Assembly: GCA_965230295.1 (NCBI GenBank)
Contig: OZ246001.1
Coordinates: 1,056,001 to 1,120,000, forward strand
Direction of reading: 5' to 3'
Source of the DNA: Marinicella sp.
Lineage (GTDB): Bacteria > Pseudomonadota > Gammaproteobacteria > Xanthomonadales > Marinicellaceae
Length of the DNA: 64,000 nucleotides
Under the pieces are notes generated by a model. The model did not search any database. It saw only the letters and a program-made list of their open reading frames with translations, and was not told where the DNA came from. The position numbers and the translations under genes are program-made. This document shows, piece by piece, positions 2,274-50,133 of the stretch; the stretch's first letter is position 1; each line of letters begins with the position of its first letter.

Positions 2274-3633
2274 TCAGCAATGCTTCACACCAAATATCAG
2301 GTGTAATCCGTTGCAAAGCAATGGTTCCCGATTGCACTTCAGGCTCAGTAAACTCAAACGTCAACAAGGCTTCAAAGCAACTGAAAAATTCCACTTCAGC
2401 GGTACCAACCACCGCTGCGGATACGGCTGTGGGATCATTAAAAACACCACTGGCTGTACGAATCACTGACATTTCTACAGTGGCACCCTGGACAGGGCCA
2501 ATGGCTGTGAACCAACGGCTTTGGGTTGAGCCAAAGCCTGTCAGTTCCGTTTCCGGGTCTGCCGGCTCATCGTTGTAGGTAAACCAATACATCACCGCAT
2601 CAAACCGATCTGTACCCACCGCAAAATCAAACACCACACCTTGACCGTCCTGACTGGGGTCAAACCATGAACCTGCCAGACCATAATTGATTTCAAAATC
2701 ATTTGGATTGCCTGATGTTTCTAAGGCTATTTTTCTGATTGGAATTTGGTTCAAATTAAAATCTGATGAACCGGTGGCATACACTGCACCGGTGTTGTGA
2801 TCCAAACCCAAGCCATTGGGCCGCGAAATGGTGGCCACATCTGCAGGCCCATCTTCGTTGCCATCAACGCCTGTCCCGGCATAGGTTTCTATCTGTCCAT
2901 TCACATCGATGCGATACACTTTATTGGTTGTCCGACCACTGACATAATAAAATCCATCCAGGTACTCCAAATGAGATCCAGCACCTGGTATGTCTGCGAA
3001 CAATGAACTGTTGCCGGCATTATCAACCCGAAAGATCTGTCCGTTTTGCCACATCAACACGTAAAAAGCATTGTCATGGCCGATGATGAGCCCATTGGCA
3101 CAAGTGATGCCAGGTAAGGTCGCGATGGTTTGCCTGCTGCCATTGACCAGTTGGCTTAACCGATTGGCACTGCATTCAACCACGTATAAATTATCACTGG
3201 TATCAACCGTTAACCCCACGGGCCCAGATAATCCACTGTTGATGATGGTTTGGTTACCGTTGGGTGCAATTCTGTACACATCTCCTCCAGAAAACGTGGC
3301 CACATATAAATTACCATTGGAATCCATGGTCACTCCTGATGGCGCAGCTGATAAGCCAGAAGAAAAAACCGAAGCATTGCCCTCAGCGGTAATTTTCACT
3401 ACGGTGGAACCATTGGCAAAACTCGGGTTACCAAAATCAGTGATATAAACATCTCCATTATCAGCCACGTAAATATCACCATTGGCCCGAACTTCAGCAA
3501 TGGTTGATACCACCAATTCCTGGCTTTCCTGAGCATGAACCAAGCCACTGCAGAACACCCACAACAGCCAGCTGTGTTTCAGACCAGTTGATATTATTTT
3601 GAGTTGTTTAGCGACAACACTCCACTTTTTCAT
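2266..3633 (-). CDS. Secreted NHL/SMP-30-like beta-propeller protein, tandem paralog of 918..2273
   Basis: Signal peptide (…LVHA), PSGVTMDSNGNLYV and PVGLTVDTSDNLYV blades, YAGTGVDGNEDG and the same C-terminal domain. Overlaps the next gene by 8 nt. Confidence 0.8.
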   Translation of the reverse strand: MKKWSVVAKQLKIISTGLKHSWLLWVFCSGLVHAQESQELVVSTIAEVRANGDIYVADNGDVYITDFGNPSFANGSTVVKITAEGNASVFSSGLSAAPSGVTMDSNGNLYVATFSGGDVYRIAPNGNQTIINSGLSGPVGLTVDTSDNLYVVECSANRLSQLVNGSRQTIATLPGITCANGLIIGHDNAFYVLMWQNGQIFRVDNAGNSSLFADIPGAGSHLEYLDGFYYVSGRTTNKVYRIDVNGQIETYAGTGVDGNEDGPADVATISRPNGLGLDHNTGAVYATGSSDFNLNQIPIRKIALETSGNPNDFEINYGLAGSWFDPSQDGQGVVFDFAVGTDRFDAVMYWFTYNDEPADPETELTGFGSTQSRWFTAIGPVQGATVEMSVIRTASGVFNDPTAVSAAVVGTAEVEFFSCFEALLTFEFTEPEVQSGTIALQRITPDIWCEALLSE

Positions 3634-3698
3634 TGATCACCTTATTTGATTGGAACTTCCCATAACATAGCAAAGACTACGAGTTTTTGGGTGCGCTA

Positions 3699-3769
3699 TG
3701 CAGCGGAAGGATTGACTGTTGCAGGCAGTTTAATAAAGTTACGTCGAATGACTGTTATTTTGCAGTGAA
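3699..3769 (-). promoter_or_regulatory. Candidate LytTR-type operator: four ~21-bp-phased imperfect 9-mers upstream of the NHL operon
   Basis: TGCAGCGGA (3699), TGCAGGCAG (3720), TACGTCGAA (3740), TGCAGTGAA (3761). A minus-strand -10-like TATGTT lies at 3669-3664. Confidence 0.35.
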
Positions 3770-3773
3770 CAAA

Positions 3774-4319
3774 TCATGTGGTCTTAGGATTTTTAATTTT
3801 GTCTGTGTTGTGCAGGTATTTAGATTGCACCTTTAACATGTCAAGTGCCAAATCAAAAGCCATTGAACCACCTTTCAGTAATGCAGGCTTTGCTGCATTG
3901 TGGTATTCGCTGAGGTGGCTGATCTCGGCATCCAACTGTTTTTTGAGGTTACTCAATAGCAGAGCTTGTTGCCCTTTGCTCAATAAATCTAAAAACGACA
4001 ACTTCACCAATATGATCGATGGGCTATTGATTAACTGACTGCTTTCAATGTCACCCATCATCCATGCAATTAAAACTTGCCTGCCTGACTCATGGATTTT
4101 GAATACTTTTTTGTTTCTGACATGTTTGGATTGTTCAATCGCTTCAATGTATCCCAACTTTGCTAATTTATTGATGGCAGGATAAATCGAACCTGGTGAA
4201 TGGCTTAACAAAGACATGGGGGTATGTTGTATCACCTGGCACAGGTCATATCGTGATTGGGGTTTGTTATTGATCAGGCCAAGCAGCAAGTAATTCAAAT
4301 GTGTTAATTGGTTTGACAT
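3774..4319 (-). CDS. PadR-family transcriptional regulator
   Basis: LLLGLI…YDL…SPGSIYPAINKL…KKVFKIHESGRQ winged HTH plus C-terminal helices. Divergent from a DoxX gene. Confidence 0.85.
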   Translation of the reverse strand: MSNQLTHLNYLLLGLINNKPQSRYDLCQVIQHTPMSLLSHSPGSIYPAINKLAKLGYIEAIEQSKHVRNKKVFKIHESGRQVLIAWMMGDIESSQLINSPSIILVKLSFLDLLSKGQQALLLSNLKKQLDAEISHLSEYHNAAKPALLKGGSMAFDLALDMLKVQSKYLHNTDKIKNPKTT

Positions 4320-8570: not shown

Positions 8571-10277
8571 TTATTGATTTTTTTGCAGTAATTGGATCAC
8601 TTCATCGCGTTGAGTCAGGGATAAAATCAGTAACACATCACCACTTCTGGCCCAATCCAAGGCCTTCTTGGTTCCTTCCAAAGGCGAATCTGCCTGAATG
8701 ATCTGACTCTTTTTCATGCCCAGTTCAAGTGCAAACTGTTCAATCAATACCGGTACTTCACCGGGTTTTCTGCCACGCAGGTAATCTCTCAACTCACAAA
8801 TCACCAGGCAATCAGGATCTGCCATCAGGCCAGATTTCACCAAGCCTTTGATCAAGGCATCATCACGGTCACCAGCTTGGCCAATGAGCAACAACCTCCT
8901 GTTGGCCGGCATGTTTTTTAAAGTGGTCGCCATGGCTGCCAAACCGTGCTCATTATGAGCAAAATCAACCAGCACCTTGAAATCATTGTAAGTGAATAAA
9001 TTACCACGGCCAGGATTGTTTTCAGGACTGGAAGCGAATGTCTTCAAACCGGATTGGATCACTCCAACCTCAATGCCCATGGCAAACATCATAGCCACCA
9101 CCGCCAGTGCATTGTGAACGTTGTGTTTGGCTGCCCCTGACATGGTGATCGGAATGTCTTCCACCGCAATGATCTTAATGGTCGGCTGATCAGCGGCTGG
9201 GTCATGATAATGAATCACTCCATCCTCCACATAAGTGGCTTTACCACCCTTGGAAATATGCTGCAGAACCACTGGGTTGTCGACATCCCAACTGAACCAA
9301 ACCAGTTGGTTGGGCAGCGTCGCTGCCATTTTGACCACCCCTTGATCATCGGCATTCAAGATTAAATCCTGATGGTTATTCAATGCTTGTCGCACCACAA
9401 ATTTGGCTTCGATCATGTCATCGACCGTGTCTATACCATAATCCCCTAAGTGGTCAGCTGCCACATTGGTGATGGCAGCGCACAGGGCTTGATTCACACC
9501 CAGGCCACGTCTGAGCATCCCGCCACGAGCCACTTCCAACAATGCCATTTCTGTCTCAGGGTGACGTAACAGAGTCCTGGCACCACCTGGACCAGAGTAA
9601 TCACCAGTGTCTAATATCTGTTCATCAATGCGGATGTAATCAGTCGATGTGATGCCACACTTGATACCAGCAGTTTTGATCACGTGGGCTGCCAATCGAA
9701 CTGTTGTTGATTTGCCGTTGGTGCCAGTGACCAAAGCCAATGGCACTGAAGCGATGCTTGTCCAGTCGATGTGACTGGCATCAGGAATGTTGTTGACAGG
9801 GAACACTTGGCAACCTGCACCATAGCCAATGGAAACATGGTCATCGTCACTGAGAAAACGCACATCATGGGTTTTGGCGGCTGCTTGCAAAGCCAATAAA
9901 GCTGGATTGGCCTCTTCTTTCACCATCACAAGCAGTTTTTCAACTTGCGGCTCCAAGGGTTCCTGAGGTTCATTGTTGAAATGATTGACCGTGCGTTGCC
10001 AGGCCACTTCATTCACTTCTGTGGCGGCGTACAAAACATCAATCGGTGCGGTAAATCCTAAAGAGGCTCCAGCTGCATACTGACGATGAAAGTCACGTTC
10101 CGACTGCCATCCAAGCAATGTAAGTAACCTTCTTAATTCTTGTTGCCAACAGTTAATTACGGTTTGTTTGTCAAAACCATCGATCAAAACATCGATGATG
10201 GCTCCCGCATCCGGGCCAAACATATTAGGCCCCGTTAATCGCCTGGAATCTTCCAGCAGCAGTTGTTGTTCAGTCAT
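8571..10277 (-). CDS. Cyanophycin-synthetase-like Mur ligase protein lacking the ATP-grasp (G) domain
   Basis: N-terminal RRLTGPN resembles the CphA N-domain. Mur ligase P-loop VTGTNGKSTT, LEVARGG, NVAADHLG, PGR and DFAHN are present. The ATG at 10277 overlaps the cphA stop. Confidence 0.8.
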   Translation of the reverse strand: MTEQQLLLEDSRRLTGPNMFGPDAGAIIDVLIDGFDKQTVINCWQQELRRLLTLLGWQSERDFHRQYAAGASLGFTAPIDVLYAATEVNEVAWQRTVNHFNNEPQEPLEPQVEKLLVMVKEEANPALLALQAAAKTHDVRFLSDDDHVSIGYGAGCQVFPVNNIPDASHIDWTSIASVPLALVTGTNGKSTTVRLAAHVIKTAGIKCGITSTDYIRIDEQILDTGDYSGPGGARTLLRHPETEMALLEVARGGMLRRGLGVNQALCAAITNVAADHLGDYGIDTVDDMIEAKFVVRQALNNHQDLILNADDQGVVKMAATLPNQLVWFSWDVDNPVVLQHISKGGKATYVEDGVIHYHDPAADQPTIKIIAVEDIPITMSGAAKHNVHNALAVVAMMFAMGIEVGVIQSGLKTFASSPENNPGRGNLFTYNDFKVLVDFAHNEHGLAAMATTLKNMPANRRLLLIGQAGDRDDALIKGLVKSGLMADPDCLVICELRDYLRGRKPGEVPVLIEQFALELGMKKSQIIQADSPLEGTKKALDWARSGDVLLILSLTQRDEVIQLLQKNQ

Positions 10278-13071
10278 TGTCTTCTTGTCTGGCCAAACGC
10301 ACACCACGATCGTCCTTGATCACTTCAAAATCACCCATATCCAAATCCTGTTTAGTCTGAATCACATTGGAAACCACAGGGCCAGTGCTTGAACTGGTCT
10401 GACTTTCAAAGTCCGCATTGAAGTTGATGATTTGTTTCCAACATCGGGTGATGTCATCGCCGAATATCAGCAACAAATCACCTTCTCGGGCCATTTTCAA
10501 GGCGGCGTCAACCGCTTCGGTTTCATCAGCAATGACTTCAATTTGGTTGTCCTGAACACCTTTTTCCATCAACTGTTTGCGCAACATCAAGGGCACTTCT
10601 TTTTGATCCCTGCCACGGCGGTTGTCATCGGCTTTTAAAATGTAATGGTCAAAATGTCCCGCTGCCTCATCAGCGATGGCAAAAATGTCTTCATCTCGGC
10701 GGTCTCCCGGCGCAGCCAAGGTACATATCTTGCGGCCACTGATCTCAAAGCGATCAATGGTTTGACACACCATACTGATGGCTGCGGCATTGTGTCCATA
10801 ATCAAGAATCACCTTAAAGGGGTGCTCGTCATATTGATTCATGCGACCTGGTGCCTGGAAGAAAGAAGTATCAAAAGTGCGCAAGCCGTGTCTGATTTGT
10901 TCCAGCTCAATGTCCATCGCAAAAGACATCGCACTGGCAAACATGGCATTTTGTACATTATGAACCGCTTTGCCTTCAATGGTGGCCGGAATCAAGTGGG
11001 TCCACAGCAAAGGAATGTGGCTGTGGTTGTCATAAATGGTGATCATGTCTCCATTGATGCCTTGCTCTAACACCACTGCGGTGCCACCTTGTTTGATGTG
11101 CTCTTTGACCAAATTATGTCCCGGATTCATGGTCACATAACACAATTTTTTGGCCTGGGTGTAATCGGCCATTTGTAAACAAAAAGGGTCATCGGCATTC
11201 AGCACGGCCGTGTCCTCGGCCACTTCAACCACCACACGTTTGATTTCTGCCAATTGCTCCAGGGTATCGATGCCTTTCAAACCCAAATGATCTGAATCGA
11301 TGTTCAAACATGCCGAAACATTGGCGTAGTTATAACCCAAACCTGCCCGCAAGATACCACCTCGGGCCGTTTCCATCACCGCCACATCAACCGTAGGATC
11401 ACGCAGCACAATGTTGGCGGCCATGGGACCTGTCATGTCACCTTTGACCGACAAATGGCCATCAATATAGACCCCATCGGTTGAAGTTGAGCCGACGGTG
11501 TGACCTGCAATTTTTAAAATATGTGACAGCATCCTGGAAGTGGTGGTCTTGCCGTTGGTTCCGGTGATTGCCGCAATCGGTATGCGGCTGGGTGTACTGG
11601 GTGGGAACAACATGTCCATCACTTTTCCAGCCACATCTCGTGGTTGTCCTTCTGACGGCGCCACGTGCATGCGAAAACCGGGTGCAGCATTGACTTCAAC
11701 AATGGCGCCACCGATTTCTTTGTAAGATTGGCTGATGTCCTGGGTCAAGAAATCCACTCCACCCACATCCAATCCGACTGCCATCACGGCACGTACCGCC
11801 ATGGCACGGTTATCAGGATGCACTTCATCGGTTAAATCTATCGCAGTACCGCCGGTTGACAAATTGGCTGTTGAACGCAGAAAGAAGACCTGATCTTTGT
11901 CGAGCACCGAATCAGTGGTATAACCTGCTGCATCCATCAACTTCTCAGCTTGTCGATCCAATTCCAACATGGTCAAAACTTTTTCGTGACCCACACCACG
12001 TCTGGGGTCTTGGTTCACCACTTCAACCAATTCAGCAATGGTGCTTTTCCCATCACCGACAACATGGCCTGGAACGCGTTTAGCAACCGCCACCAATTCG
12101 CCATTGACCACCAACATGCGGTGATCAAAGCCCAAGATCAATGACTCAATCAATACACCTCTTGAAGTGCCTTTTTCACGGGCAAAACGAAACGCCGCCT
12201 CCACTTCTTCATCGGTGCTGATGTCAATGGTGATACCCCGGCCGTGGTTGGCATTCAGAGGCTTGACCACCACTGGATAACCCATGCGTTTGGCAGCCCG
12301 CACCGCCTGCCGTTCAGAATAAACCAAATCCTGACTGGGTAATGGCAAGCCCAAATCACGCAGTAAATTATGGGTGTCTTCTTTGTCACAAGAAATTTCC
12401 ACGGCTATGTTGGTGGTCTTACTGGTGATGGTGGCCTGAATCCTTTGTTGGTATTTACCATGACCAAATTGCACCAATGAGTATTCATTCAATCGCAACC
12501 AAGGTATATTGCGTTCTTCTGCAGCACGCACGATGGAAGCGGTGGATGGACCCAGCTCTTTGCGTTGGGCAAAGCGGATGAAATCAGTCAACTCTTCGTT
12601 GAAATCAAAATCATCTTCAATGAAGTCTTTCAGTTGGGCCTGTACTTCTGCCGGCATCAAGCTGAACAACAGCTGTCGACCCAACTTGGCAGCAGCCAGT
12701 CCCACATCTCGTTGTTTGTATTCGAAAACCATGTTGTAACACCCAGGTTGACCTTCAATGGAACGGGTTTTGCCAAATGTGACGTCAGAGCCTGCCATGC
12801 ACTGCAGTTCGATCACCGTGTGCTCTAACACATGACCCATCCAAGTGCCTTCGTCTTCTTTCAAGCGCCGAATGAACCCACCTGGTTCGCCATAGGAACA
12901 GCCATGTTCTTGCAAACCCGGTAAGGCTACCAGGTAGTTATTGATGAAATCTTCACCCAGTTTTGCCGACGGCCACTGCTCCAATATCCCCAAATCCAAT
13001 TGCTGTCTGATGACTGGAAAGTGAGCGTACAAATTTGGCCCGACATAAACATTGGTGGTTAATATTCTCAT
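10270..13071 (-). CDS. cphA: Cyanophycin synthetase CphA1
   Basis: N-domain (GPN; C…HVLEH), ATP-grasp domain (VVKPLNANHGRG, ANLSTGG, EVNAAPGFRMH) and Mur ligase domain (ITGTNGKTTT, ETARGG, DYGHN). Confidence 0.96.
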   Translation of the reverse strand: MRILTTNVYVGPNLYAHFPVIRQQLDLGILEQWPSAKLGEDFINNYLVALPGLQEHGCSYGEPGGFIRRLKEDEGTWMGHVLEHTVIELQCMAGSDVTFGKTRSIEGQPGCYNMVFEYKQRDVGLAAAKLGRQLLFSLMPAEVQAQLKDFIEDDFDFNEELTDFIRFAQRKELGPSTASIVRAAEERNIPWLRLNEYSLVQFGHGKYQQRIQATITSKTTNIAVEISCDKEDTHNLLRDLGLPLPSQDLVYSERQAVRAAKRMGYPVVVKPLNANHGRGITIDISTDEEVEAAFRFAREKGTSRGVLIESLILGFDHRMLVVNGELVAVAKRVPGHVVGDGKSTIAELVEVVNQDPRRGVGHEKVLTMLELDRQAEKLMDAAGYTTDSVLDKDQVFFLRSTANLSTGGTAIDLTDEVHPDNRAMAVRAVMAVGLDVGGVDFLTQDISQSYKEIGGAIVEVNAAPGFRMHVAPSEGQPRDVAGKVMDMLFPPSTPSRIPIAAITGTNGKTTTSRMLSHILKIAGHTVGSTSTDGVYIDGHLSVKGDMTGPMAANIVLRDPTVDVAVMETARGGILRAGLGYNYANVSACLNIDSDHLGLKGIDTLEQLAEIKRVVVEVAEDTAVLNADDPFCLQMADYTQAKKLCYVTMNPGHNLVKEHIKQGGTAVVLEQGINGDMITIYDNHSHIPLLWTHLIPATIEGKAVHNVQNAMFASAMSFAMDIELEQIRHGLRTFDTSFFQAPGRMNQYDEHPFKVILDYGHNAAAISMVCQTIDRFEISGRKICTLAAPGDRRDEDIFAIADEAAGHFDHYILKADDNRRGRDQKEVPLMLRKQLMEKGVQDNQIEVIADETEAVDAALKMAREGDLLLIFGDDITRCWKQIINFNADFESQTSSSTGPVVSNVIQTKQDLDMGDFEVIKDDRGVRLARQEDND

Positions 13072-13201
13072 GATTTCCTCTATTAGTTATTCTTATTTAT
13101 ATGACTTGCACACGGTCACTGCCACAAGCCCAACCGGAATGGTTATTTATATCACAAATTGAATGTTTTGCTAAGTAGGCTATACAGCACAATGCAAAGA
13201 T

Positions 13202-14014
13202 TTATTCGAAAGCTTCTCGCGTATCAATGTTATACCTGGCACCGGTGGCCAATACATGTAGTTTCATTCCAATCAAGGTGATGCAGTCACGGTGCCTGGC
13301 ATCATGCATGGAAGAGTGTGACAGTTCTGCAGGATCCACCACAGTGATGGCACCCGAACCCACCACCTCAAAAACACCATCCGGACCAATGAAAGCTGCG
13401 GTGTCTTCATCTATACCAATGCCTGAAACAAACGGGTTGTATGACAACGCGGTCATCAAGCGGCCGATGCGGTCTCTTTGCCTGAAATGTTGATCGATGA
13501 TCACTTTGTTGGTCAATCCCAGCCCCGGAGCCATGGTGGCACCGTCTTCTGTCGGCGTAGGCCCGGTACGCCCGCCGGCGATCATGTGTTCTGACATGAT
13601 CGCAGCTCCGGCCGAAGTACCGGCCACATGCACCCCAGCAGCATTCATAGAGCGAATCATTTTGGCCACAGGTGTGCCACCCAAAATGGTCGACAAGCGT
13701 AACTGATTACCGCCTGTGATAAAAATACCCGTGGCTTTTGATAAAGAATCCTGGATTTCTTCTTTGAAACAATCTTCTCTTTCATCCACAGCAATGAATT
13801 TAGACTTGGCTCCCATGTTTTCAAAGATTTCAACATATCGGGGACCAGTGTCTTCGAGTTCCGAAGCGGTTGGTATCACCAGAATTTTGCCATCTGCTCC
13901 TCCTGACAGTTGACAAAATTTTTCTAAAATTATCGGTTCGTTGACTTTTTCTTCAGCACCACCGATGGGTATAACAAAACCGCGTTCGACTTGATCAATA
14001 TTGGGTGAGGGCAT
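13202..14014 (-). CDS. cphB: Cyanophycinase (S51 serine peptidase), intracellular
   Basis: IGGAEEK, TGGNQLRL, GTSAGA (Ser), DQHF (His) and GIDEDT (Glu). No signal peptide; adjacent to cphA. Confidence 0.95.
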   Translation of the reverse strand: MPSPNIDQVERGFVIPIGGAEEKVNEPIILEKFCQLSGGADGKILVIPTASELEDTGPRYVEIFENMGAKSKFIAVDEREDCFKEEIQDSLSKATGIFITGGNQLRLSTILGGTPVAKMIRSMNAAGVHVAGTSAGAAIMSEHMIAGGRTGPTPTEDGATMAPGLGLTNKVIIDQHFRQRDRIGRLMTALSYNPFVSGIGIDEDTAAFIGPDGVFEVVGSGAITVVDPAELSHSSMHDARHRDCITLIGMKLHVLATGARYNIDTREAFE

Positions 14015-14023
14015 AATGATTCC

Positions 14024-15196
14024 TTAATTATTGTTGTGTTCGAATCCACCAAATATCAAAGTTTGGTGATCTTTTTGATGCCATTGGCCCATGGCCATGA
14101 CGTCTTGTATGTTGTGCTGTTGATCCAGAACCACCAAGTCAGCATCAAACCCGACTTCGATTTGACCTTTGCTTTTGAGACGCAACAGTTCTGCCACATT
14201 TTGAGTGAACGCTGGCAACACTTGATGCGCTGGCAGACCCTCAGCCAACAAAGTTTGTAAGGTCTGGCTCAAGGCTTCACAGCGACCAATATCCATGTGC
14301 AACATTTCACCTTGCTCGTTGAAATGTGGCAAACAGCCACCACCATCAGATGAAATGGTGAATCGGTCCATAGGACAACCAGCTGCTTGGAACAACTTGA
14401 AAGCATCTGCTGCAGTCCAGGCATCTTCATCATCAGCCACTGGGAAAGCGGTGACATCAATGTAACTACCTCGGCGGCTCAGTTCGCAAGCTTGTTCAAA
14501 CAGGGCTTTGTTGCGGTTACAGTGGGTTGGGTTCAACACCCTGGCAGGAATTTCAGTTTGATCCAATAATGCATTGATCAAATCCAATCCTCGACGGCCA
14601 TCACCCAAATGAAAATGAACCACCCCAGCTTTGCGGGTCATCAAACCTGCCACATGGGCATCGCCGGCTATCCGTGCCACTTCATCGAAAGTGGGCTGGC
14701 TGGAACGGTGATCCGAGATGGCCAATTCGCCCACGCCCAAGATGGGTTCAATGTGAACAATGTCACTCTTGGCTGAACCCGTTAAGGTGGTCAATGGCAC
14801 ATGATATCCTCCGGTATAACAGAAGGCACTGATGCCGGCTTCTCGCAACGCATAGACTTGTGCCAACAAAGAAGACGTGCTGCGGGTTAAGTCATCGGTT
14901 CCCAACAAGCCCACCACTGTGGTCACACCAGCACGGGTGTAGTCACTCAAATGAACGGCTGGCACTTTACTGGCAAACCCATCTTCCCCGCCTCCACCAG
15001 TGATGTGGGCATGCCCATCAATCAAACCCGGAATCAAACGAGCGCCTTGATAGTCGGTATCTGTGGCCAATAAGTCTGCAGCAATTTCTGGCAAGCTTGG
15101 ACCCATGTAAACAACCTTTCCAGCCGCAACCAACACATGACAGACACCTAAATCTGCCGGTGCATATACGTGAACATTTCTTAATAAATGGATCAT
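14024..15196 (-). CDS. iadA: Isoaspartyl dipeptidase (beta-aspartyl peptidase)
   Basis: DGHAHITGGGGE, GVTTVVGLLGTD, AISDHRSS, HFHLGDG, PTH and SSDGGG motifs. Confidence 0.95.
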   Translation of the reverse strand: MIHLLRNVHVYAPADLGVCHVLVAAGKVVYMGPSLPEIAADLLATDTDYQGARLIPGLIDGHAHITGGGGEDGFASKVPAVHLSDYTRAGVTTVVGLLGTDDLTRSTSSLLAQVYALREAGISAFCYTGGYHVPLTTLTGSAKSDIVHIEPILGVGELAISDHRSSQPTFDEVARIAGDAHVAGLMTRKAGVVHFHLGDGRRGLDLINALLDQTEIPARVLNPTHCNRNKALFEQACELSRRGSYIDVTAFPVADDEDAWTAADAFKLFQAAGCPMDRFTISSDGGGCLPHFNEQGEMLHMDIGRCEALSQTLQTLLAEGLPAHQVLPAFTQNVAELLRLKSKGQIEVGFDADLVVLDQQHNIQDVMAMGQWHQKDHQTLIFGGFEHNNN

Positions 15197-15967: not shown

Positions 15968-18900
15968 TTAATCAAAACCATCTTTGAAGATGAGATCAAA
16001 ATCGAAAGTTACAAACAACACAAAACCATCATGATCAGTCGATCGCAATGACGTGGTGTCATCGTCTTCAAAATTCACATTGGCATCTGCTTGTCCACGC
16101 ACAAACTGCATTTCATTCAGATTCATCAAACCGGCATCGTTCATGATGACGTTGTCTAATGACTGTGCAGAACCTCTGAAAATGAACGAATACTGCTGAT
16201 CTGCAGGCAAGGTCTGAATGCCTTGGGTTAATGGATCGGCAGAAAATTCAGGCTCTGACCACAACAAATTATCCGCATCAACTGCCGTACCGGTGATTTG
16301 ACCAATCACATCGACATAGCCATCAGTAAATTCAAATGCATTGAAGTCACCAATCACATACAAAGACACATCAGGATCTTCGTCGATGATTGAACGGGCC
16401 ATTAAAGCCACTGAATTGGCCTGTTGTAGTCGTTTACTGCGCACCCGATCTCCATCGACGGCATCATCGATACTGCTTCTGGATCGCTGGTGCACTGTCA
16501 ACACATTGATTGGCAATGTACCTCCCGGTAATGTCACATCGGCTTGTAAGCGCAAGGGCGGGCGGTCGTGCAGTAATGAACCATCAAAAGTATTGATGTC
16601 AGCCGCACCCAATTGAGTGATCGTGACATTACTCAATAAATCGGCGCGGTACAAATAGGCCACATTGATGCCACCTTGATCATTGCCTGCAATCAATTCG
16701 GCGGTATAGGTTGGACCACCTGCTGTGGTGATGGCATTGATCAAATCAAACAGTACAGTGATTCGCTCAATTTCTTGCAAGCCAATGATGGTTGGAGACT
16801 TCATGTCATTGACAAAGTAATTACCCAGTTTTTGTAACCTGGCAGCGTATTCCGCCGGGTCAGCAATTTGGTCATCATCTTCAGGCTCAGGGTCATTGAT
16901 GTCATTGAACAACCTGAATAAATTGGCAGAGCCAATGGTGAATTCCGTAGGCAAGGCATCACGTACCGCACCTGGAATCACATTTTCATTGATGATTGTG
17001 AGCACCGAAGGTTGCAACTCATAATCACCAAAACCGTAACTCAGAACGCCTTGGGCCGAAAACTCGGTCCCTGCTGACAATGCTTGGAATGGCAAGCCCA
17101 AAGCTTCCACACTCATTTCAATCAACTCAGGATTACCATCAAATACAGGTAAATTTGGTAAGCCGGGGAAATCAATGCCTGGTTCCCTGAATGCCCTGGA
17201 AGAGCCCGCTTTGATCACTGCATCATCACGGTCATTCCCAAAGAACCCAGCCGATGCTGCACTGACAAAGGCTTGTGGCATATTAAAATGCATGCCTTCA
17301 TAACACTCAAAACCCAGTGACTCACTGCCACAAGGGAACATGGTTGGGTCCGTTGACGGGAAAGTGTCATCCAAAACGATTACCTCAGGTAATGGATTTC
17401 CTGAAGAATCAACGGTCACCACAAGGCTGCCAGGGTTGGCAAATTCTGTGAGGTCAAAGAACTCTACAATGTCTCCAGTGACATCAACCTGATCTCCCAC
17501 TGCCACCATTGGTGCGCCACCAGTAAACACAAAAATCCCACTTGAAGTTAATGGGTCTACATCATTACGCCCATCAGGGGTTTGCATATAAAAACCATTG
17601 GTGTCTAACGCCGTAACGATGTTATCCAAAGTAGTGACTGCCTGACCAGCATAAGGAGAAGCCAATCCATTGCCTTGGATTTCAAAAATTTCTACCTCAG
17701 GGAATCCAGCGCCAAATTGCATCACGAAATTATCACCGCCTGTGCCATCACCGTTGCCATCAAGTTGATCTACTGAACCATCCAAATCGGTGACCTCTGC
17801 AGCCAATAAAGTCAGGGTACAGGTGGTGCCATTAGGCAAGTCCGCATCCGGGTTCAAGACCACTTGTGTGGCGTTGGACACTGGTAAACCAGTAAAAGTG
17901 ATTGGAGCGGCATCACAGGTCAACGTGGCTGCACCAGCACTTGCGTCAACAGCTTCAGAAAAATTGATGGTGATGTCCGTGTCTAAAGCCACCCCTGAAT
18001 CATTATCTGCTGGTGTGGTTGTATTCACACTGGGTGGCAAGTCACCCATGCCCAAGCAACCACCAAAGGAACTTCCATCCGTCAATGTACCTGGTGAAAA
18101 CAAGGTACCTCCACTGCCGGCAGCTAAGCTGTGTTCAACGTATGCGACACCTGTGATGTCCGGTTCCAGATTCAATGACTGATTGTTACCACCCTCTGCT
18201 CCGTAAGTGTGTGTGGCCACATCACTGACTCCGTCATTGATAGTGATCGTGTCTCCACCATTGTTCAAGCCAATAAAGCCACCACTGGCAATTTGCACCA
18301 CAGAATTGCCAAATAAACCAGTGGGTGTACCACCACCAAAGACGACCACACTACAGTCTGAGGGTATGACTGTTGCGGCAGGAAATGTATGCCTGACCTG
18401 TACAGCATCTGATAAAGTCCAGCCTGAAACATCTAAATCTGCACCAGAATTGTTGTAAATTTCAACAAACTCGTCATCTGATCCATCACGGACTCCATCG
18501 CCATTGGCGTCACCTGACAAGCCACTGGCAGGATCGGCTTGAAACTCGTTGATGATGACTGGCTGGGTGGCTGATTCAACGTTAAAACTGAAGTTAACAT
18601 CGGCTGTCATGTTATCTGGCATGCCGTCCTGATCAGTCACCTCAGCTGCCACCACAACAACGTCACAGCTGCCATCAAATGGCAGGTCTGCATCCGGAGT
18701 AATGACCACTGAATTGCCCGATGCAGGTAAGCCTGTGAAGGTTTGTGTCATCGCATCACAAGTCAAAGTAACCGCATCAATGGTGGCATCAACTGACTCA
18801 TCAAAGTTGATCGTTATCTGTGTATCAACTGCGACATTGGTTGCACTGTCAGCAGGATCAGTGGATGTCACAGCTGGCGCTGTATCACCACCTCCTGAAC

Positions 18901-19462
18901 AGCCACCGAAACTGGTGCCGTCAATGCCGGTACCAGGAGAAAATAAACTGCCACCTGAACCAGTGGCTGTGCTGTGTTCAGTGAAAGTACCAGTGATGTC
19001 AGGATCTCTGGTCACTGATTGATTGTTGCCACCTTCACTGCCATAAATGTGCGAGGCCTGATCAACTAAACCGTCGTTGACAGTTATGGTATCACCACCA
19101 TTGGTTAATCCAAGGCCTCCTGTAGAAGCCGTTTGCACCACTGCATCACCGAAGGTGCCAGTAGGTGTTCCACCACCAAAAACCACCAAAGAACAACCAG
19201 CAGGGATCACGCTTGATGCCGGAAATGTATGCCTAACCAGTGCCGCATCTGACAAAGTCCACCCAGACACATCCAAAGCCGAGCCTGTGTCGTTATAAAG
19301 TTCAATGAACTCATCTTCAGTCGCATCCCTCACGCCATCACCATTGGCATCGCCGGTGATGTCTCCGGCAGGATCGGCTTGAAACTCATTGATAACTATG
19401 GAATTGCCCGCTTGTGAAATTATGCTGGTAAAAACCAGCACCAACATGGATAAGATCCTCAT
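15968..19462 (-). CDS. Secreted ExeM/NucH-like nuclease: 2x (lamin-tail + Ig-like Big_5) + OB-fold + EEP domain, ending in DLIFKDGFD
   Basis: Signal peptide; duplicated IINEFQADPA…DEFIE(L/I)YN lamin-tail domains; TDPADSATNV Ig-like repeats; IFEIQG…SPYAGQ OB-fold; EEP motifs LQEIE, GDFNA and TDHD. Confidence 0.85.
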   Translation of the reverse strand: MRILSMLVLVFTSIISQAGNSIVINEFQADPAGDITGDANGDGVRDATEDEFIELYNDTGSALDVSGWTLSDAALVRHTFPASSVIPAGCSLVVFGGGTPTGTFGDAVVQTASTGGLGLTNGGDTITVNDGLVDQASHIYGSEGGNNQSVTRDPDITGTFTEHSTATGSGGSLFSPGTGIDGTSFGGCSGGGDTAPAVTSTDPADSATNVAVDTQITINFDESVDATIDAVTLTCDAMTQTFTGLPASGNSVVITPDADLPFDGSCDVVVVAAEVTDQDGMPDNMTADVNFSFNVESATQPVIINEFQADPASGLSGDANGDGVRDGSDDEFVEIYNNSGADLDVSGWTLSDAVQVRHTFPAATVIPSDCSVVVFGGGTPTGLFGNSVVQIASGGFIGLNNGGDTITINDGVSDVATHTYGAEGGNNQSLNLEPDITGVAYVEHSLAAGSGGTLFSPGTLTDGSSFGGCLGMGDLPPSVNTTTPADNDSGVALDTDITINFSEAVDASAGAATLTCDAAPITFTGLPVSNATQVVLNPDADLPNGTTCTLTLLAAEVTDLDGSVDQLDGNGDGTGGDNFVMQFGAGFPEVEIFEIQGNGLASPYAGQAVTTLDNIVTALDTNGFYMQTPDGRNDVDPLTSSGIFVFTGGAPMVAVGDQVDVTGDIVEFFDLTEFANPGSLVVTVDSSGNPLPEVIVLDDTFPSTDPTMFPCGSESLGFECYEGMHFNMPQAFVSAASAGFFGNDRDDAVIKAGSSRAFREPGIDFPGLPNLPVFDGNPELIEMSVEALGLPFQALSAGTEFSAQGVLSYGFGDYELQPSVLTIINENVIPGAVRDALPTEFTIGSANLFRLFNDINDPEPEDDDQIADPAEYAARLQKLGNYFVNDMKSPTIIGLQEIERITVLFDLINAITTAGGPTYTAELIAGNDQGGINVAYLYRADLLSNVTITQLGAADINTFDGSLLHDRPPLRLQADVTLPGGTLPINVLTVHQRSRSSIDDAVDGDRVRSKRLQQANSVALMARSIIDEDPDVSLYVIGDFNAFEFTDGYVDVIGQITGTAVDADNLLWSEPEFSADPLTQGIQTLPADQQYSFIFRGSAQSLDNVIMNDAGLMNLNEMQFVRGQADANVNFEDDDTTSLRSTDHDGFVLFVTFDFDLIFKDGFD

Positions 19463-44820: not shown

Positions 44821-45534
44821 TTATCTGCGTTTTCTGAAGGTCGGATTGTGCGGTGGATGGTAATGCGTTCTGCGCCAAAAATGCTTACCACCCAGTTTGA
44901 GCCACACGGGCAATGACAACAGCAAACCGACAACAAAACCACCAATGTGGGCCCAATAAGCCACGCCGGAACCCGCCACAGTCGTGGATACCCCTGAAAA
45001 CAATTGCATGGCCATCCAACCACCCAGAATCACAAAAGCTGGCAGCGTGATGATGTGGATAAAGACCACCAGGAAGATTAAATAGTCTACTTTGGCTTTG
45101 GGGTATAACAGCATGTAAGCCCCCATGACTCCCGCAATGGCACCAGAGGCACCCACAGTTGGGATCATAGATTCAACGTTGAACAAGACATGGAACAGGT
45201 CAGCCCCCAAACCACTGAACAGATAAAAAAGCAGAAATTTGCCGTGCCCCATCGCATCTTCAACATTGTCACCAAAAATCCACAAGAACAGCATGTTGCC
45301 TGCCAAGTGCATGTAACCTGCATGTAAAAACATGGAAGTGAAGGCAGTATGTAGCTGTTCTCCTTGAACCACTTCCCCAGGTACCATGGCCCAATTGGCA
45401 AAGAAGCCAGACAAGGCATGTGGGTCATCTAAAATTGGCATATAGCTGATAAAGACCAAGACGTTGATGGCCATCAATGTCCACGTTACATAGGGTGTTT
45501 GACTAGACGGGTTGTGGTCGCGGATGGGAATCAA
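44821..45534 (-). CDS. Rhomboid intramembrane serine protease
   Basis: HAGYMHLAGNM, GASGA (Ser) and AHIGG (His) motifs. Confidence 0.93.
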   Translation of the reverse strand: MIPIRDHNPSSQTPYVTWTLMAINVLVFISYMPILDDPHALSGFFANWAMVPGEVVQGEQLHTAFTSMFLHAGYMHLAGNMLFLWIFGDNVEDAMGHGKFLLFYLFSGLGADLFHVLFNVESMIPTVGASGAIAGVMGAYMLLYPKAKVDYLIFLVVFIHIITLPAFVILGGWMAMQLFSGVSTTVAGSGVAYWAHIGGFVVGLLLSLPVWLKLGGKHFWRRTHYHPPHNPTFRKRR

Positions 45535-46282: not shown

Positions 46283-49261
46283 ATGCATATGACTTTTAAG
46301 ACTTTGATGTTGGCTGTTGTGTTGCTGTCTATGACCACAGTTCACAGTGAATCGCTCAACATCCAAACCAAGCATCAGCACAGTAAAAAAGCATTCAATC
46401 ACACACAATTCCCGATGTCTCCATTGACTGACCGACTTGAAATCGCCGCTCAATTACTGAAACATGAAACCGGAACATTGCAACCGTTAACCAGCTGGAA
46501 ACTGTATTCACAGGTAAAAACTCCTGGCGGAATTGAAGTTTTTAAGTTTCAGCACTTGCTCAATGGTTATCCGGTTATGGGGGATTGGGCGATGGTGGTG
46601 TTGAATGCTACAGGTCAACCACTGATCACAGAAACCTCAATGGTCATGGTAGATAAAGAACCTGTTTCATTGCCGTTAGACAATGATCGCTGGTTCCAAG
46701 CCACCCATACCAAAGCCGGGCAACAACAGCACACGGCAACCAAGAACCGTATTTGGTATAAAGACAACAATCAATTGATTCCGGCATTGATCAGCCAAAC
46801 CATCATAAGCCAGGATCAACAGCCCCTGTTGTATGCCTTTATTCATGCTGCCGAGGACGGACAGCTACTACAGAAAACATCGTTAACTCACGCTGTTGCT
46901 TACAACTACAAAGTCTATGCAGATAACAATGGTTTACCAGCTGACAGCGTATATGGGTCTACCCAACCACACCCCACAGGCATCCCTGACGATACACAAC
47001 CCAGCGTATTTGCCGATCAAGTCATCGTCAATGTAGAGGAAATTTCCGTTACTGTGGATGATCCCTGGTTACCAGCTGGCGCCACAGAAACAGTGGGTAA
47101 TAATGTCGACATATTTTTTAATTCATTGTTGTTACCTGATGGCACTTACGACAACAATTTCTCTGATGGTTTGGCTTACGGGCCGGGCTTTCAGCCAATT
47201 GATGGTGATTTCCGGGCACAATTGGGTGCTGGTTCAACCTTCGATTATACTTATAACCCGGCCATCTCCGCCGACGATTTTTATCAGCTATTCAGCGACC
47301 CAGTACCATCAAACCCTTCACCCGATGACCCACAAATCAATGCCAAACTGGTACAAGGTTTCTACATGGCAAACGTCATGCGTGATATATTCTATGACGC
47401 TGGTTTTACAGAAGTTGCTGGCAACGCACAAGAGGATAACTATGGCCGCGGCGGCATAGAAAACGACCGCATGATCATCCATGGGAATTGTTTATCTACC
47501 TTTGTATTCACCCCAGAGGACGGGGTTCAACCGGTGATGTGCTTAGGTCGAAACAGTTCCAGTTCAACCAACAAAGATGCCAGCTTTGATTATTCAATAT
47601 TTGCCCATGAATGGTCACACTATATGTACAAAAGGTTGGTACAAGGCCCAAGCTTGCCATCGGGCAATCAGGGCAGCAGCTTGAACGAGGGCTGGGCTGA
47701 CTTAGTGGGCATATTCATGACATTAGATGCTGCTGACTTCAACGCCCCCACCGCTGCAGGTTTTGACAGTGTTTATACGGTTGGAGGGTATTTTAATACC
47801 GATTACAGCCTCAACTACATTGCATATTTTGACCCCAATGGCACCCCGCCAGATGCGCATTTTTATGGTATCAGAAGGTGGCCTTTTGGCGCATCTAATC
47901 CCCTGACATTTCGCCACATCGAGCACTTGCAAGAACTGCCAAACACCCACCCTTATTTTGACTGGAAGGGCCGCTCAAAATTCAATTCTGAATACCATTC
48001 TGCCGGTGAGATATGGGCCGCCAGCACCTGGGATTGCTTCAGAAATATCCTGGCAGATCGCACTGATCGCACTTTCGCTGAGAACAAGAGTCAACTTGCC
48101 GCCTACATCGTCGGCGGTATGGCTGCCACACCTCCTGATCCAACTTATACCGAAGCCAGAAATGGTTTATTACTGGCCATCAACCAATCAGACCCGACAG
48201 ATTGGCAGACCTGTCGCCAGGCTTTTGCAGATCGGGGTATGGGATCTGGTGCCATTTCACCAGACCGTTTTTCAAAAACACATGCGAATGTGGTTGAGCA
48301 CTTTGCCAATGACGACCTTGAAATGACCGTGGTTTCTGCTAACTTGACTGATGATCTGGTTTCATTTGACAATGATGGAATTCTTGACGAATTCGAAACC
48401 GGAAATCTCAATCTGACCCTAAAAAATACCGGCTTCAAAACCATCGAATTCAGTTCAATCGAATTAATCAGCAGTGCCGATTACAGCTTCCCTGCTGCTG
48501 CCAATGAGTTTTTTGATGTGCCTCCCGGTGGAGAAATCGAAGTACTGTTACCCATCAAATTACTGCATAACAGGCAATTCGATGATACTGAGTTTACCCT
48601 GGTGACCGCCTTGTCAACTGACAATGGCAACACTTCTGGCGGCGGTGATACTGTTTTGAGTTTCAAAACACATTTCAACCAGGCTTCATCTGATGCTGCG
48701 ACAGAAACATTGGACTACGAAGCAGCCATGAATTTATGGGCTGAAGAAACCCTGTATCAATATCCTTTCATCAATCCACATTATGAACGTCGAGAGCTGG
48801 CCGGAAATACAAACGTGGTGTTACAGATTGGCGAAGTTTTCGGTGGCTTTGAAAAAACCCTGACCAGCCCCTGGCTGACTTTGGATCCGTTGAATCCAGA
48901 AGTCAATTTAAGCATTAACCACACTTACCTATTAGGCGATACCGGGCAACAGCTTAATGTTGAATACAGTTTCGATGATGAAAACTGGCTTACCATGAGC
49001 ACCCAAAACAACAACCCTGCCATTTTTCTTGGCGACGACCTGAATTACCCAACACTGGGTTTTGAACCCCTGTCTATTCCGGACCTTGACGGCAACACCC
49101 AGTTTAAAATCCGTTTTTATATCAATGCATTCACTGACTATACACCAACTGAAGCCGTTTGGATGATAGATAACATCAGTTTGGATGGTGTCACGGAGCA
49201 GCCTTTCTTAACTGTCACCAGCCAGAGCTCAAATGACTTGATCTTTGTTGATGGTTTTTAA
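46283..49261 (+). CDS. Secreted M36 (fungalysin-like) metallopeptidase ending in DLIFVDGF
   Basis: Signal peptide and propeptide; GFTEVAGNAQ, HEWSH…EGWAD, YGIRR, H..GEIWA, EARN and FADRGMG motifs; C-terminal beta domains. Confidence 0.85.
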   Translation: MHMTFKTLMLAVVLLSMTTVHSESLNIQTKHQHSKKAFNHTQFPMSPLTDRLEIAAQLLKHETGTLQPLTSWKLYSQVKTPGGIEVFKFQHLLNGYPVMGDWAMVVLNATGQPLITETSMVMVDKEPVSLPLDNDRWFQATHTKAGQQQHTATKNRIWYKDNNQLIPALISQTIISQDQQPLLYAFIHAAEDGQLLQKTSLTHAVAYNYKVYADNNGLPADSVYGSTQPHPTGIPDDTQPSVFADQVIVNVEEISVTVDDPWLPAGATETVGNNVDIFFNSLLLPDGTYDNNFSDGLAYGPGFQPIDGDFRAQLGAGSTFDYTYNPAISADDFYQLFSDPVPSNPSPDDPQINAKLVQGFYMANVMRDIFYDAGFTEVAGNAQEDNYGRGGIENDRMIIHGNCLSTFVFTPEDGVQPVMCLGRNSSSSTNKDASFDYSIFAHEWSHYMYKRLVQGPSLPSGNQGSSLNEGWADLVGIFMTLDAADFNAPTAAGFDSVYTVGGYFNTDYSLNYIAYFDPNGTPPDAHFYGIRRWPFGASNPLTFRHIEHLQELPNTHPYFDWKGRSKFNSEYHSAGEIWAASTWDCFRNILADRTDRTFAENKSQLAAYIVGGMAATPPDPTYTEARNGLLLAINQSDPTDWQTCRQAFADRGMGSGAISPDRFSKTHANVVEHFANDDLEMTVVSANLTDDLVSFDNDGILDEFETGNLNLTLKNTGFKTIEFSSIELISSADYSFPAAANEFFDVPPGGEIEVLLPIKLLHNRQFDDTEFTLVTALSTDNGNTSGGGDTVLSFKTHFNQASSDAATETLDYEAAMNLWAEETLYQYPFINPHYERRELAGNTNVVLQIGEVFGGFEKTLTSPWLTLDPLNPEVNLSINHTYLLGDTGQQLNVEYSFDDENWLTMSTQNNNPAIFLGDDLNYPTLGFEPLSIPDLDGNTQFKIRFYINAFTDYTPTEAVWMIDNISLDGVTEQPFLTVTSQSSNDLIFVDGF

Positions 49262-49353
49262 TTGGTAAACATCAAGGTTGCTAATTTCAGTCGGTTTTTA
49301 CATGACCACTGCTGTTGGTTATAATTATAAGATTGACCATCCCGTAAATAACC

Positions 49354-50133
49354 ATGAAAATCATTAAATACGCCATTGCCTGGTTGGCATCAATACTGAT
49401 ATTTACCCAAGTGAATGCCACTTTTTCTATCGTTACCGTTGACCCGGTTACGGGTCAGATAGGCAGTGCAGGTGCGACCTGTATTGGTGCTGAGGATGGT
49501 GCCATTGTGATCAGCGACATTGTACTTGAAACCGGTGTGATACATACCCAATCGTTCTACCTCCCGAACAATCAGAACAATGCCAGAAATCGCATGATTG
49601 CCGGCGACAGTCCACAACAAATCATGGATTGGTTGTTCAACAATGATGCCAACAACGACCCCAGTGCACGACAATACATCGCAGTGGATTTAAATGATGG
49701 CAGCCCAAGAAGTGCCGGCTTCACCGGTCCTGCCTGTTTCACGGAGTTTATCCATGTTACTGGGCCCAATTATGCCATCGCGGGCAACATCCTGATTTCC
49801 GAAGATGTGGTCACTGATATGGAAACCGCATTTTTGACAGCACAGGGATCCTTGGCCGAACGATTGATGGCCTCCTTACAAGCTGCTAAACGGGTCGGCG
49901 CAGACGAGCGCTGTGAACCTTTTGGCATCAGTTCCGCATCGGCATTTATACGAGTTGCCAGACCCTGTGATAAAGACAGCTCATTGGGCAATTTACCACT
50001 GGATCTGAATGTTTGGGTTGAGGACAGCAACCAAATATTCGAGCCCATTGATGAACTACAAAATCAGTTTGACAGCAGTTTGCCACTTGAAATTTGTGAG
50101 TTCGATTTGATTTTTTACGATGGTTTTGAATGA
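49354..50133 (+). CDS. Secreted DUF1028 (Ntn-hydrolase-like) protein ending in DLIFYDGFE
   Basis: Signal peptide then TFSIV..DP.TGQIG; TQS, RQY, GNIL and GAD.R…SA motifs. Confidence 0.85.
   Translation: MKIIKYAIAWLASILIFTQVNATFSIVTVDPVTGQIGSAGATCIGAEDGAIVISDIVLETGVIHTQSFYLPNNQNNARNRMIAGDSPQQIMDWLFNNDANNDPSARQYIAVDLNDGSPRSAGFTGPACFTEFIHVTGPNYAIAGNILISEDVVTDMETAFLTAQGSLAERLMASLQAAKRVGADERCEPFGISSASAFIRVARPCDKDSSLGNLPLDLNVWVEDSNQIFEPIDELQNQFDSSLPLEICEFDLIFYDGFE

Follow-up and report, generated by a model that had tools for sequence, protein, structure and literature searches.

A conserved nine-residue C-terminal tail on unrelated exported proteins of Marinicella sp., a probable sorting tag whose abundance follows PDZ-bearing GspC

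Three mutually unrelated enzymes encoded in a 64,000-nucleotide stretch of the Marinicella sp. genome (hereafter "the window"; positions 1056001-1120000 of a single 4.008-Mb contig with 44% G+C) end in the same short motif, and this C-terminal tail, with the consensus D-[VLI]-I-F-x-[DN]-G-F-[ED]-COOH, was found on 58 proteins of the genome. Judging from sequence comparison, the tail is very probably a tag appended to extracellular proteins for their sorting or export. Across genomes of the order Xanthomonadales, the abundance of the tail tracks a PDZ-bearing type of GspC, a component of type II secretion systems (T2SS), and not the T2SS in general. In our preferred reading, for which we regard the chances as evenly balanced, the tail serves as an address label linked with one T2SS, namely the one with a GspC whose PDZ domain carries an aliphatic loop. 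The genes and tails of the window on which the analysis started are as follows.

46283-49261, + strand: gene for an M36 (fungalysin-type) metallopeptidase, 992 aa, with signal peptide (Pfam PF02128, E 2.5e-42)
49232-49261, + strand: tail of the M36 protein, NDLIFVDGF plus stop, with no residue after GF (from the translation)
49354-50133, + strand: gene for a DUF1028 (Ntn-hydrolase-type) protein, 259 aa, with signal peptide (Pfam PF06267, residues 23-211)
50101-50133, + strand: tail of the DUF1028 protein, FDLIFYDGFE plus stop (from the translation)
15968-19462, - strand: gene for an extracellular nuclease, 1164 aa, with signal peptide (Pfam LTD, Big_5 and Exo_endo_phos_3)
15968-16000, - strand: tail of the nuclease, FDLIFKDGFD plus stop (from the translation)

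The M36, DUF1028 and nuclease proteins are unrelated to one another, as Pfam and NCBIfam matches confirm. The nuclease combines a signal peptide and a pair of lamin-tail domains with Big_5 domains and an endonuclease/exonuclease/phosphatase domain of the ExeM/NucH type, and scored 103 bits against NCBIfam NF033681, under the cut-off of that model. An initial annotation of the window had described the three open reading frames (ORFs) as Sec-exported proteins with a common end that no cytoplasmic protein of the window shares. The translations bear this out: the ORFs are present with the described C-terminal ends, each N-terminus is signal-peptide-like, and only these three among the 48 genes lying wholly inside the window carry the motif near the end. 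The tail strings had also been quoted correctly, but the coordinates assigned to them started at the D, one codon shorter than the strings. As had been stated, the tail contains neither a transmembrane (TM) helix nor a basic cluster, since the proteins end 0-3 residues after GF and no hydrophobic stretch is present.

The whole genome was represented by 3,364 greedy non-overlapping ORFs (1.21 million residues scanned) and searched for the tail core [ILVMF]F..GF; an ORF with the core 0-3 residues from the C-terminus was called a tail gene. The core was found 146 times, with 58 occurrences at 0-3 residues from the C-terminus, 17 at 4-8 residues and 71 at more than 10 residues. The rate of internal occurrences predicts 0.79 C-terminal cases by chance, against the 58 observed, and the reversed motif did not occur at any C-terminus in the ORF set. 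A crude signal-peptide heuristic applied genome-wide was positive for 44 of the 58 tail genes and for 913 of all 3,364 ORFs (27%; hypergeometric p ~9e-15). Several of the 14 heuristic-negative tail genes appeared by eye to be mis-called starts or truncated ORFs. The predicted enrichment of the motif at the C-termini of exported proteins is thus observed.

Within the 58 tails, the order of positions is D (42/58), [VLPI], I (51/58), F, any residue, [DN] (46/58), G and F. GF is followed by one residue in 37 genes (E in 21, D in 12, Q in 4) and by two or three residues in 18, and it ends the protein in 3. Five tandem FG-GAP genes (contig 3803983-3814879) end in GFECI, GFDCN, GFDCI, GFGCM and GFDCI, that is, in the motif followed by Cys and one residue; such ends with a penultimate Cys may be a variant form of the tail. 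Conservation of a Cys ahead of the tail was also considered and rejected, as Cys was present there in 13/58 tails against a background of about 16%, with no enrichment. Copies of the motif away from the very end were seen just past the signal peptide, at residue 39, in a 2,340-aa protein (contig 1551084-1558106, -), as a tandem double motif near the end of a 427-aa protein (contig 1123089-1124372, -), and in a 1,970-aa protein (contig 3172793-3178705, +), about 90 residues short of its end.

The 58 tail proteins span more than 20 unrelated architectures according to Pfam. They include proteases (S8, M36, M12, M10 and trypsin-like), 16 FG-GAP proteins, four DUF285/PARCEL proteins, and LamG, beta-helix, arylsulfotransferase, DUF1028, nuclease, SdiA-regulated, lactonase, MAM and Calx-beta proteins, while 15 had no Pfam match. 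Outer-membrane barrel domains were absent from all 58 in the Pfam search. No model in NCBIfam or Pfam covers the tail itself. In six tail proteins, however, a "choice-of-anchor Q" domain scored above its cut-off directly before the tail, and the M36 protein matched the myxosortase-, rhombosortase- and T9SS-dependent M36 families of NCBIfam (T9SS, type IX secretion system), all below cut-off.

The DUF1028 family reveals the tail as an exchangeable module. We compared the 120 best homologues of the window protein. The motif was present in all 28 short forms (243-263 aa), at the end in 24 of them and with 5-6 extra residues or as a variant in four, whereas 90 of the 92 long forms (at least 300 aa) carry PF18962, the T9SS C-terminal domain (CTD). 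None of these 120 homologues ends straight after the catalytic domain. In the alignment, the DUF1028 fold is conserved to about residue 236 and is followed by a variable linker and then by the tail; the Marinicella-type tail begins at the very column where the Flavobacteriaceae orthologues (61-67% identity) start their T9SS CTD. The proposed check, whether Bacteroidota orthologues have a T9SS CTD in place of the tail, thus gave a positive answer for this family. Among the 24 tail-type homologues, I253, F254 and G257 are nearly invariant and F258 is invariant, beside a variable linker. In an AlphaFold2 (AF2) model of the DUF1028 protein (mean pLDDT 76.8, pTM 0.80), the last helix ends at residue 241, and residues 253-259 have pLDDT below 50 and no secondary structure. 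For the C-terminal third of the M36 protein, two relatives were found in the databases (99% and 58% identity), and both end in the tail. The DUF1028 alignment, the AF2 model and the M36 relatives together remove the alternative that the motif is an integral strand of each enzyme's own fold: the tail lies outside the folds, after a variable linker, exchanges with a CTD and is unstructured in the model. With the enrichment, the CTD exchange and the M36 and choice-of-anchor matches, comparative evidence supports the initial proposal of a sorting or export signal on unrelated exported enzymes.

Two further observations were made on the DUF1028 proteins. The tail-type proteins have an extra pair of Cys residues (C205 and C248), invariant in the 24 sequences. 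The T9SS-type orthologues lack this pair (S or D, and no Cys), so the tail-type forms, folded in the periplasm, may have a disulfide by which the linker is pinned. In addition, the enzyme is 61-76% identical between Marinicella and Flavobacteriaceae, far closer than the organisms themselves, which suggests a probable horizontal transfer accompanied by an exchange of the export module.

To follow the tail across genomes, we counted a DNA pattern encoding F-x-[DN]-G-F-[DE]-stop, with the reversed pattern as a control. The count in the present genome is 24. In a first set of 61 genomes, members of its own family gave 5-51 matches outside the genus g5 and 1-2 within g5, a genus of small genomes; some other families gave 0, and the reversed control gave about 0. 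A larger sample of the order comprised 151 evenly sampled Xanthomonadales genomes at least 90% complete (the order name was taken from the labels on database matches), and 100 of them had at least one match. The tail-rich families were f1, f3, f4, f5, f9 and f11 (handles used here for the families of the sample), f6, f7 and f8 were poor, and f2 and f12 were split. Retention of the tail spans families that differ widely in G+C content and encode it with different codons. A sample of 401 genomes covered the class, about 397 of them from other orders; the genomes outside the order had at most three matches, no more than the reversed control (0-3). Abundant use of the tail is confined to part of Xanthomonadales.

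The genome encodes one GspC, a protein of 288 aa made up of a TM segment, an HR domain and a PDZ domain, whose gene heads a gspC-D-E-F operon. The operon (contig 654370-659829) is directly followed by ftsE and ftsX, and the pseudopilin and gspL/M genes are absent from it. A GspC profile built from 36 sequences was run on the 151 genomes of the order, and a GspC was counted only when both HR and PDZ were present; PDZ-only matches inside long ORFs were excluded. At least four tails were found in 74 of the 102 genomes with such a GspC and in 3 of the 49 without it, counts that overstate independence because the genomes are related, with perhaps 4-6 independent contrasts. As relatedness inflates the genome counts, contrasts within families carry more weight. 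In family f12, the six GspC-positive genomes all had tails (2-30 each) and the 12 GspC-negative genomes all had none. In family f2, 18 of 19 genomes had no tails, and the remaining one (G546, 18 tails) alone has a close GspC match. The T2SS as such does not show this relation: GspD scored above its curated cut-off in 10 of 11 tail-free genomes without a PDZ-bearing GspC, and the tail-rich genomes G546 and G494 have two GspD each, one of them encoded directly after the PDZ-gspC. Of the three genomes with at least four tails but no GspC match, G044 (19 tails) has its gspD orthologue truncated where a 7.6-kb contig ends, on the gspC side; it was set aside as an uninformative counter-example, since the contig breaks where gspC would lie. 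A further exception, G558, is 90% complete, and these two of the three exceptions are put down to gaps in the assemblies. In the Marinicella genome, both features associated with GspC-PDZ-dependent substrates were found, namely a PDZ-bearing GspC and Sec signal peptides on the tail proteins.

The PDZ domain itself differs between tail-rich and tail-poor genomes. Among 61 GspC sequences extracted for comparison, 11 have the classical aromatic loop, G-[YF]-[RKT]-[VL], in most of them preceded by a shortened loop. These come from f6, f7 and two f2 genomes (G522 and G534), representing three lineages, and all 11 genomes have only 0-3 tails. The other 50 sequences have a longer, aliphatic loop, G-x-x-x-G-[VLM]-R-[LV] (including one G-A-R and one G-M-Q), and 43 of these 50 genomes have at least four tails. 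When the sequences are aligned with the solved OutC chain, the varying residue falls on the Y of L-G-Y-R-L, in the loop equivalent to GLGF. The GLGF loop is the part of canonical PDZ domains that binds the carboxylate of the ligand.

In the mechanism that we propose, the tail proteins would be exported by Sec and fold in the periplasm with the tail left exposed. The PDZ domain of GspC would then capture the tail at the T2SS assembly platform, and the protein would be handed over to the secretin GspD; the tail would be needed for export. That the PDZ domain of GspC is the direct reader of the tail is a tentative part of this scheme, which we would hesitate to favour. Equally tentative is the full form of the proposal, in which the tail would be the first linear and transplantable T2SS signal, a nine-residue peptide captured by a specialised GspC PDZ, employed by about 2% of the proteome across much of the Xanthomonadales, and interchangeable in evolution with the T9SS CTD and with sortase-type tags.

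A number of observations weigh against this scheme. Canonical PDZ domains recognise a free carboxylate at a fixed register, usually with a hydrophobic last residue. The tails share a register in 37 of 58 cases and are off by one or two residues in 21, and their last residue is mostly E or D. About 12 more proteins have 4-10 extra residues after the motif, so loose is the register, and a few copies of the motif are internal or N-terminal. Seven genomes with an aliphatic-loop GspC have few tails: three of genus g5 (1-2 tails), G045 (1), G049 and G059 (3 each) and G515 (2). Moreover, the PDZ stretches of G480 and G038 are identical as aligned, with 4 tails in one genome and 11 in the other. Because of these cases the aliphatic type is not sufficient; it looks necessary but not sufficient for abundant tails, as far as the sequences indicate. 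Genome G543 has five tails and no GspC match. The comparison with other PDZ proteins covered three of five non-housekeeping candidates, the other two being an M61-PDZ and a tricorn-like S41 protein, and did not extend to the housekeeping set (DegP/Q/S, RseP and Prc). Finally, the PDZ-dependent signal known from Vibrio cholerae sits in a folded immunoglobulin-like (Ig) domain and not in a linear tail, according to the available text of PMC12369372. The loose register, the acidic end and this folded signal of the substrate VesB are among the reasons for our modest confidence in the T2SS/GspC and PDZ readings.

Other PDZ proteins were considered as readers. The genome has about 11 ORFs with PDZ domains: two DegP/Q, one DegS-like, RseP, Prc, GspC and five others. 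The three non-housekeeping proteins that were profiled do not track the tail. An Asp-protease-PDZ protein and a PDZ-hydrolase protein were both rejected, as neither is conserved in tail-rich genomes. A periplasmic protein with two PDZ domains (contig 618292-619584), used as a single query, matched in 7 of 9 tail-rich and 0 of 11 tail-poor genomes. A profile search, however, found full-length matches in tail-free genomes (three of f2, about 11 of f8 and two of f12) and no match in two tail-bearing f5 genomes, and this candidate was rejected as well. Its gene belongs to a three-gene unit (contig 617266-619584) with genes for an ECF-type sigma factor and an anti-sigma factor. All 7 homologous two-PDZ loci, which come from five families, have the sigma gene upstream, and the unit is widespread in the order, independently of the tail. 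It may be an envelope-stress sensor.

The tail might alternatively act after export, as a retention or docking tag on proteins that leave through the T2SS for other reasons, fastening them to lipopolysaccharide, an outer-membrane protein or the matrix, for example by beta-strand addition, with a reader other than GspC. Many carriers are indeed surface- or adhesin-like (the 16 FG-GAP and four DUF285/PARCEL proteins, beta-helix and Calx-beta proteins), and the loose register with its internal and N-terminal copies would suit a strand-like docking better than a carboxylate ligand. The modules replaced by the tail (the T9SS CTD, and MYXO-CTERM and GlyGly-CTERM) are also understood to give surface attachment in their own systems (see the available text of PMC13393428). 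Such docking, however, leaves the scarcity of tails in genomes with an aromatic-loop GspC or a PDZ-less T2SS without explanation, and it requires an additional receptor of the same distribution; no conserved neighbour gene was seen, in neighbourhoods that were not systematically searched. We consider it unlikely, although it deserves serious attention. A signal for processing or quality control in the periplasm, by which a PDZ protease (Prc, DegP/Q, the tricorn-like S41 or the M61-PDZ protein) would trim or degrade stuck proteins after reading the tail, appears very improbable. PDZ proteases do read C-terminal residues, DegS those of outer-membrane proteins with YxF and Prc non-polar tails, and the set of PDZ ORFs in the genome includes Prc, two DegP/Q, the DegS-like protein, RseP, the tricorn-like S41 and the M61-PDZ protein. 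Housekeeping proteases would nevertheless be expected to be universal, whereas the tail is limited to part of one order; the profiled non-housekeeping PDZ proteins fail to follow it, and it is difficult to see why about 2% of the genes should carry a degradation tag in the position that export modules occupy in orthologues.

Two further explanations dispense with a reader. The tail could be an intrinsic element, such as a metal-binding or stabilising cap that protects the C-terminus outside the cell. Its acidic residues are conserved (D at -2 in 42/58, D or N before G in 46/58, and E or D as the last residue), and the motif also occurs internally or N-terminally in a few proteins. The AF2 model, however, shows neither structure nor packing for the tail, and a cap would not explain why the tail is restricted to exported proteins, why it is exchanged with the T9SS CTD or why it is co-distributed with one GspC type, which makes this explanation very improbable in our view. 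The other one, a functionless 3' cassette that hitch-hiked by recombination or by duplication of paralogues, is disfavoured to the point that we give it scarcely any weight. It would fit the many carriers that lie in tandem clusters (FG-GAP genes at contig 3.79-3.86 Mb, DUF285 genes at 3.05-3.06 Mb), but it is at odds with more than 20 unrelated architectures, with a tail that stays nearly invariant beside a variable linker, with its retention across families of very different G+C under other codons, and with its presence in M36 relatives of 58% identity.

An export tag read at the T2SS would bear on a long-standing question. How the T2SS chooses its folded substrates is described as open, with no linear signal known and a prevailing view that the signal is structural, in the available text of PMC7949064 and PMC12369372. 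Here, dozens of putative substrates in each genome share a short, conserved and easily mutated tail, and tail-rich and tail-free relatives differ in a single loop of the candidate reader. If the proposal is true, the tail would offer a portable export tag for Gram-negative hosts and improve the prediction of localisation for thousands of exported Xanthomonadales proteins now called "hypothetical". The order includes plant-associated bacteria with T2SS-dependent traits, as stated in the available text of 10.1101/2024.05.07.592856; the subtilase IssA of Dyella japonica is one of its known T2SS substrates. No description of the tail was found in the full-text literature, with subscription journals outside the coverage of the search.

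Two other loci of the window may be recorded. About 750 bp upstream of the M36 gene, the opposite strand carries a gene for a rhomboid-family protease (44821-45534, -). Its product reached the cut-off of neither the GlpG nor the rhombosortase model, and its assignment as a rhombosortase was rejected (32 bits against a cut-off of 84). Three adjacent ORFs at 10270-15196 (-), of 933, 270 and 390 aa, are by eye presumably a cyanophycin synthetase, a cyanophycinase and an isoaspartyl dipeptidase.

Known sorting systems resemble the tail in part. Type I secretion signals do not describe the tail proteins, as 44/58 were positive for signal peptides, most of the others were positive by eye, and Pfam detected no RTX repeats. 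Nor do the beta-signals of outer-membrane proteins, as none of the 58 has a barrel domain and only 3 end in F, against E, D or Q in the 37 with a single residue after GF. The NCBIfam model NF050076 (sort_motif_YLP) is a curated 11-position model of an ultrashort putative C-terminal sorting motif and is in this respect comparable to the tail, but it describes another sequence; its three matches on the genome were weak (E 0.15-0.65), fell in ORFs of 22-65 aa and did not involve any tail gene. It is known that the PDZ domain of DegS reads the C-terminal residues of unassembled outer-membrane proteins. DegS thus provides a precedent for a periplasmic PDZ domain that reads a short aromatic C-terminal motif common to many exported proteins. 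Its motif differs in ending in the aromatic residue and in being carried by beta-barrels, and its recognition triggers a stress response and not export.

The tripartite signals (GlyGly-CTERM with rhombosortase, MYXO-CTERM with myxosortase, PEP-CTERM with exosortase and LPXTG with sortase) share with the tail the principle of one short C-terminal tag on many unrelated exported proteins. The many-to-one relation with a machine is also similar, and the M36 relatives fall in families named for their dependence on rhombosortase or myxosortase. These signals, however, have a TM helix and a basic cluster, and the tail has neither. A local scan of the genome found about five proteins with a tripartite end (PVPV, a hydrophobic helix and a basic cluster), none of them a tail protein, at contig 3056-3868, 820214-821107, 982792-983415, 2778439-2783760 and 3946541-3948502. 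These ends resemble IPTL-CTERM. The start of one of the genes lies 4 bases ahead of the stop of a 110-aa ORF with the GFE tail at its end. A second, minor class of predicted tags thus coexists with the tail in the genome. GlyGly-CTERM proteins such as VesB also exit via the T2SS, according to the available text of PMC13393428.

The T9SS CTD is likewise an export module appended to the C-termini of unrelated enzymes with signal peptides, and it occupies the same position in the DUF1028 orthologues. It differs in being a folded domain of about 70-80 residues, whereas the tail has nine residues and no predicted structure. The models PF18962 and TIGR04183 matched none of the 58 tail proteins and had no match in a six-frame search of the genome.

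The T2SS offers a comparison in the choice of substrates by GspC. The second domain of GspC varies, being a PDZ domain in OutC and EpsC and a single helix in XpsC of Xanthomonas, as given in the available text of PMC11981180. In V. cholerae, the PDZ domain of EpsC selects one T2SS substrate, VesB; only some of the substrates depend on this domain, and the PDZ-dependent signal can be grafted, as reported in the available text of PMC12369372. EpsC with VesB, and OutC of Dickeya, are similar to the proposed scheme in that the variable C-terminal domain of GspC picks out a protein exported by Sec. In EpsC/VesB, the signal is a folded Ig-like domain in one substrate, whereas here it would be a nine-residue tail on about 2% of the proteome. 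OutC has the classical L-G-Y-R-L loop, whereas the corresponding loop in the GspC PDZ of the present genome is aliphatic and lengthened.

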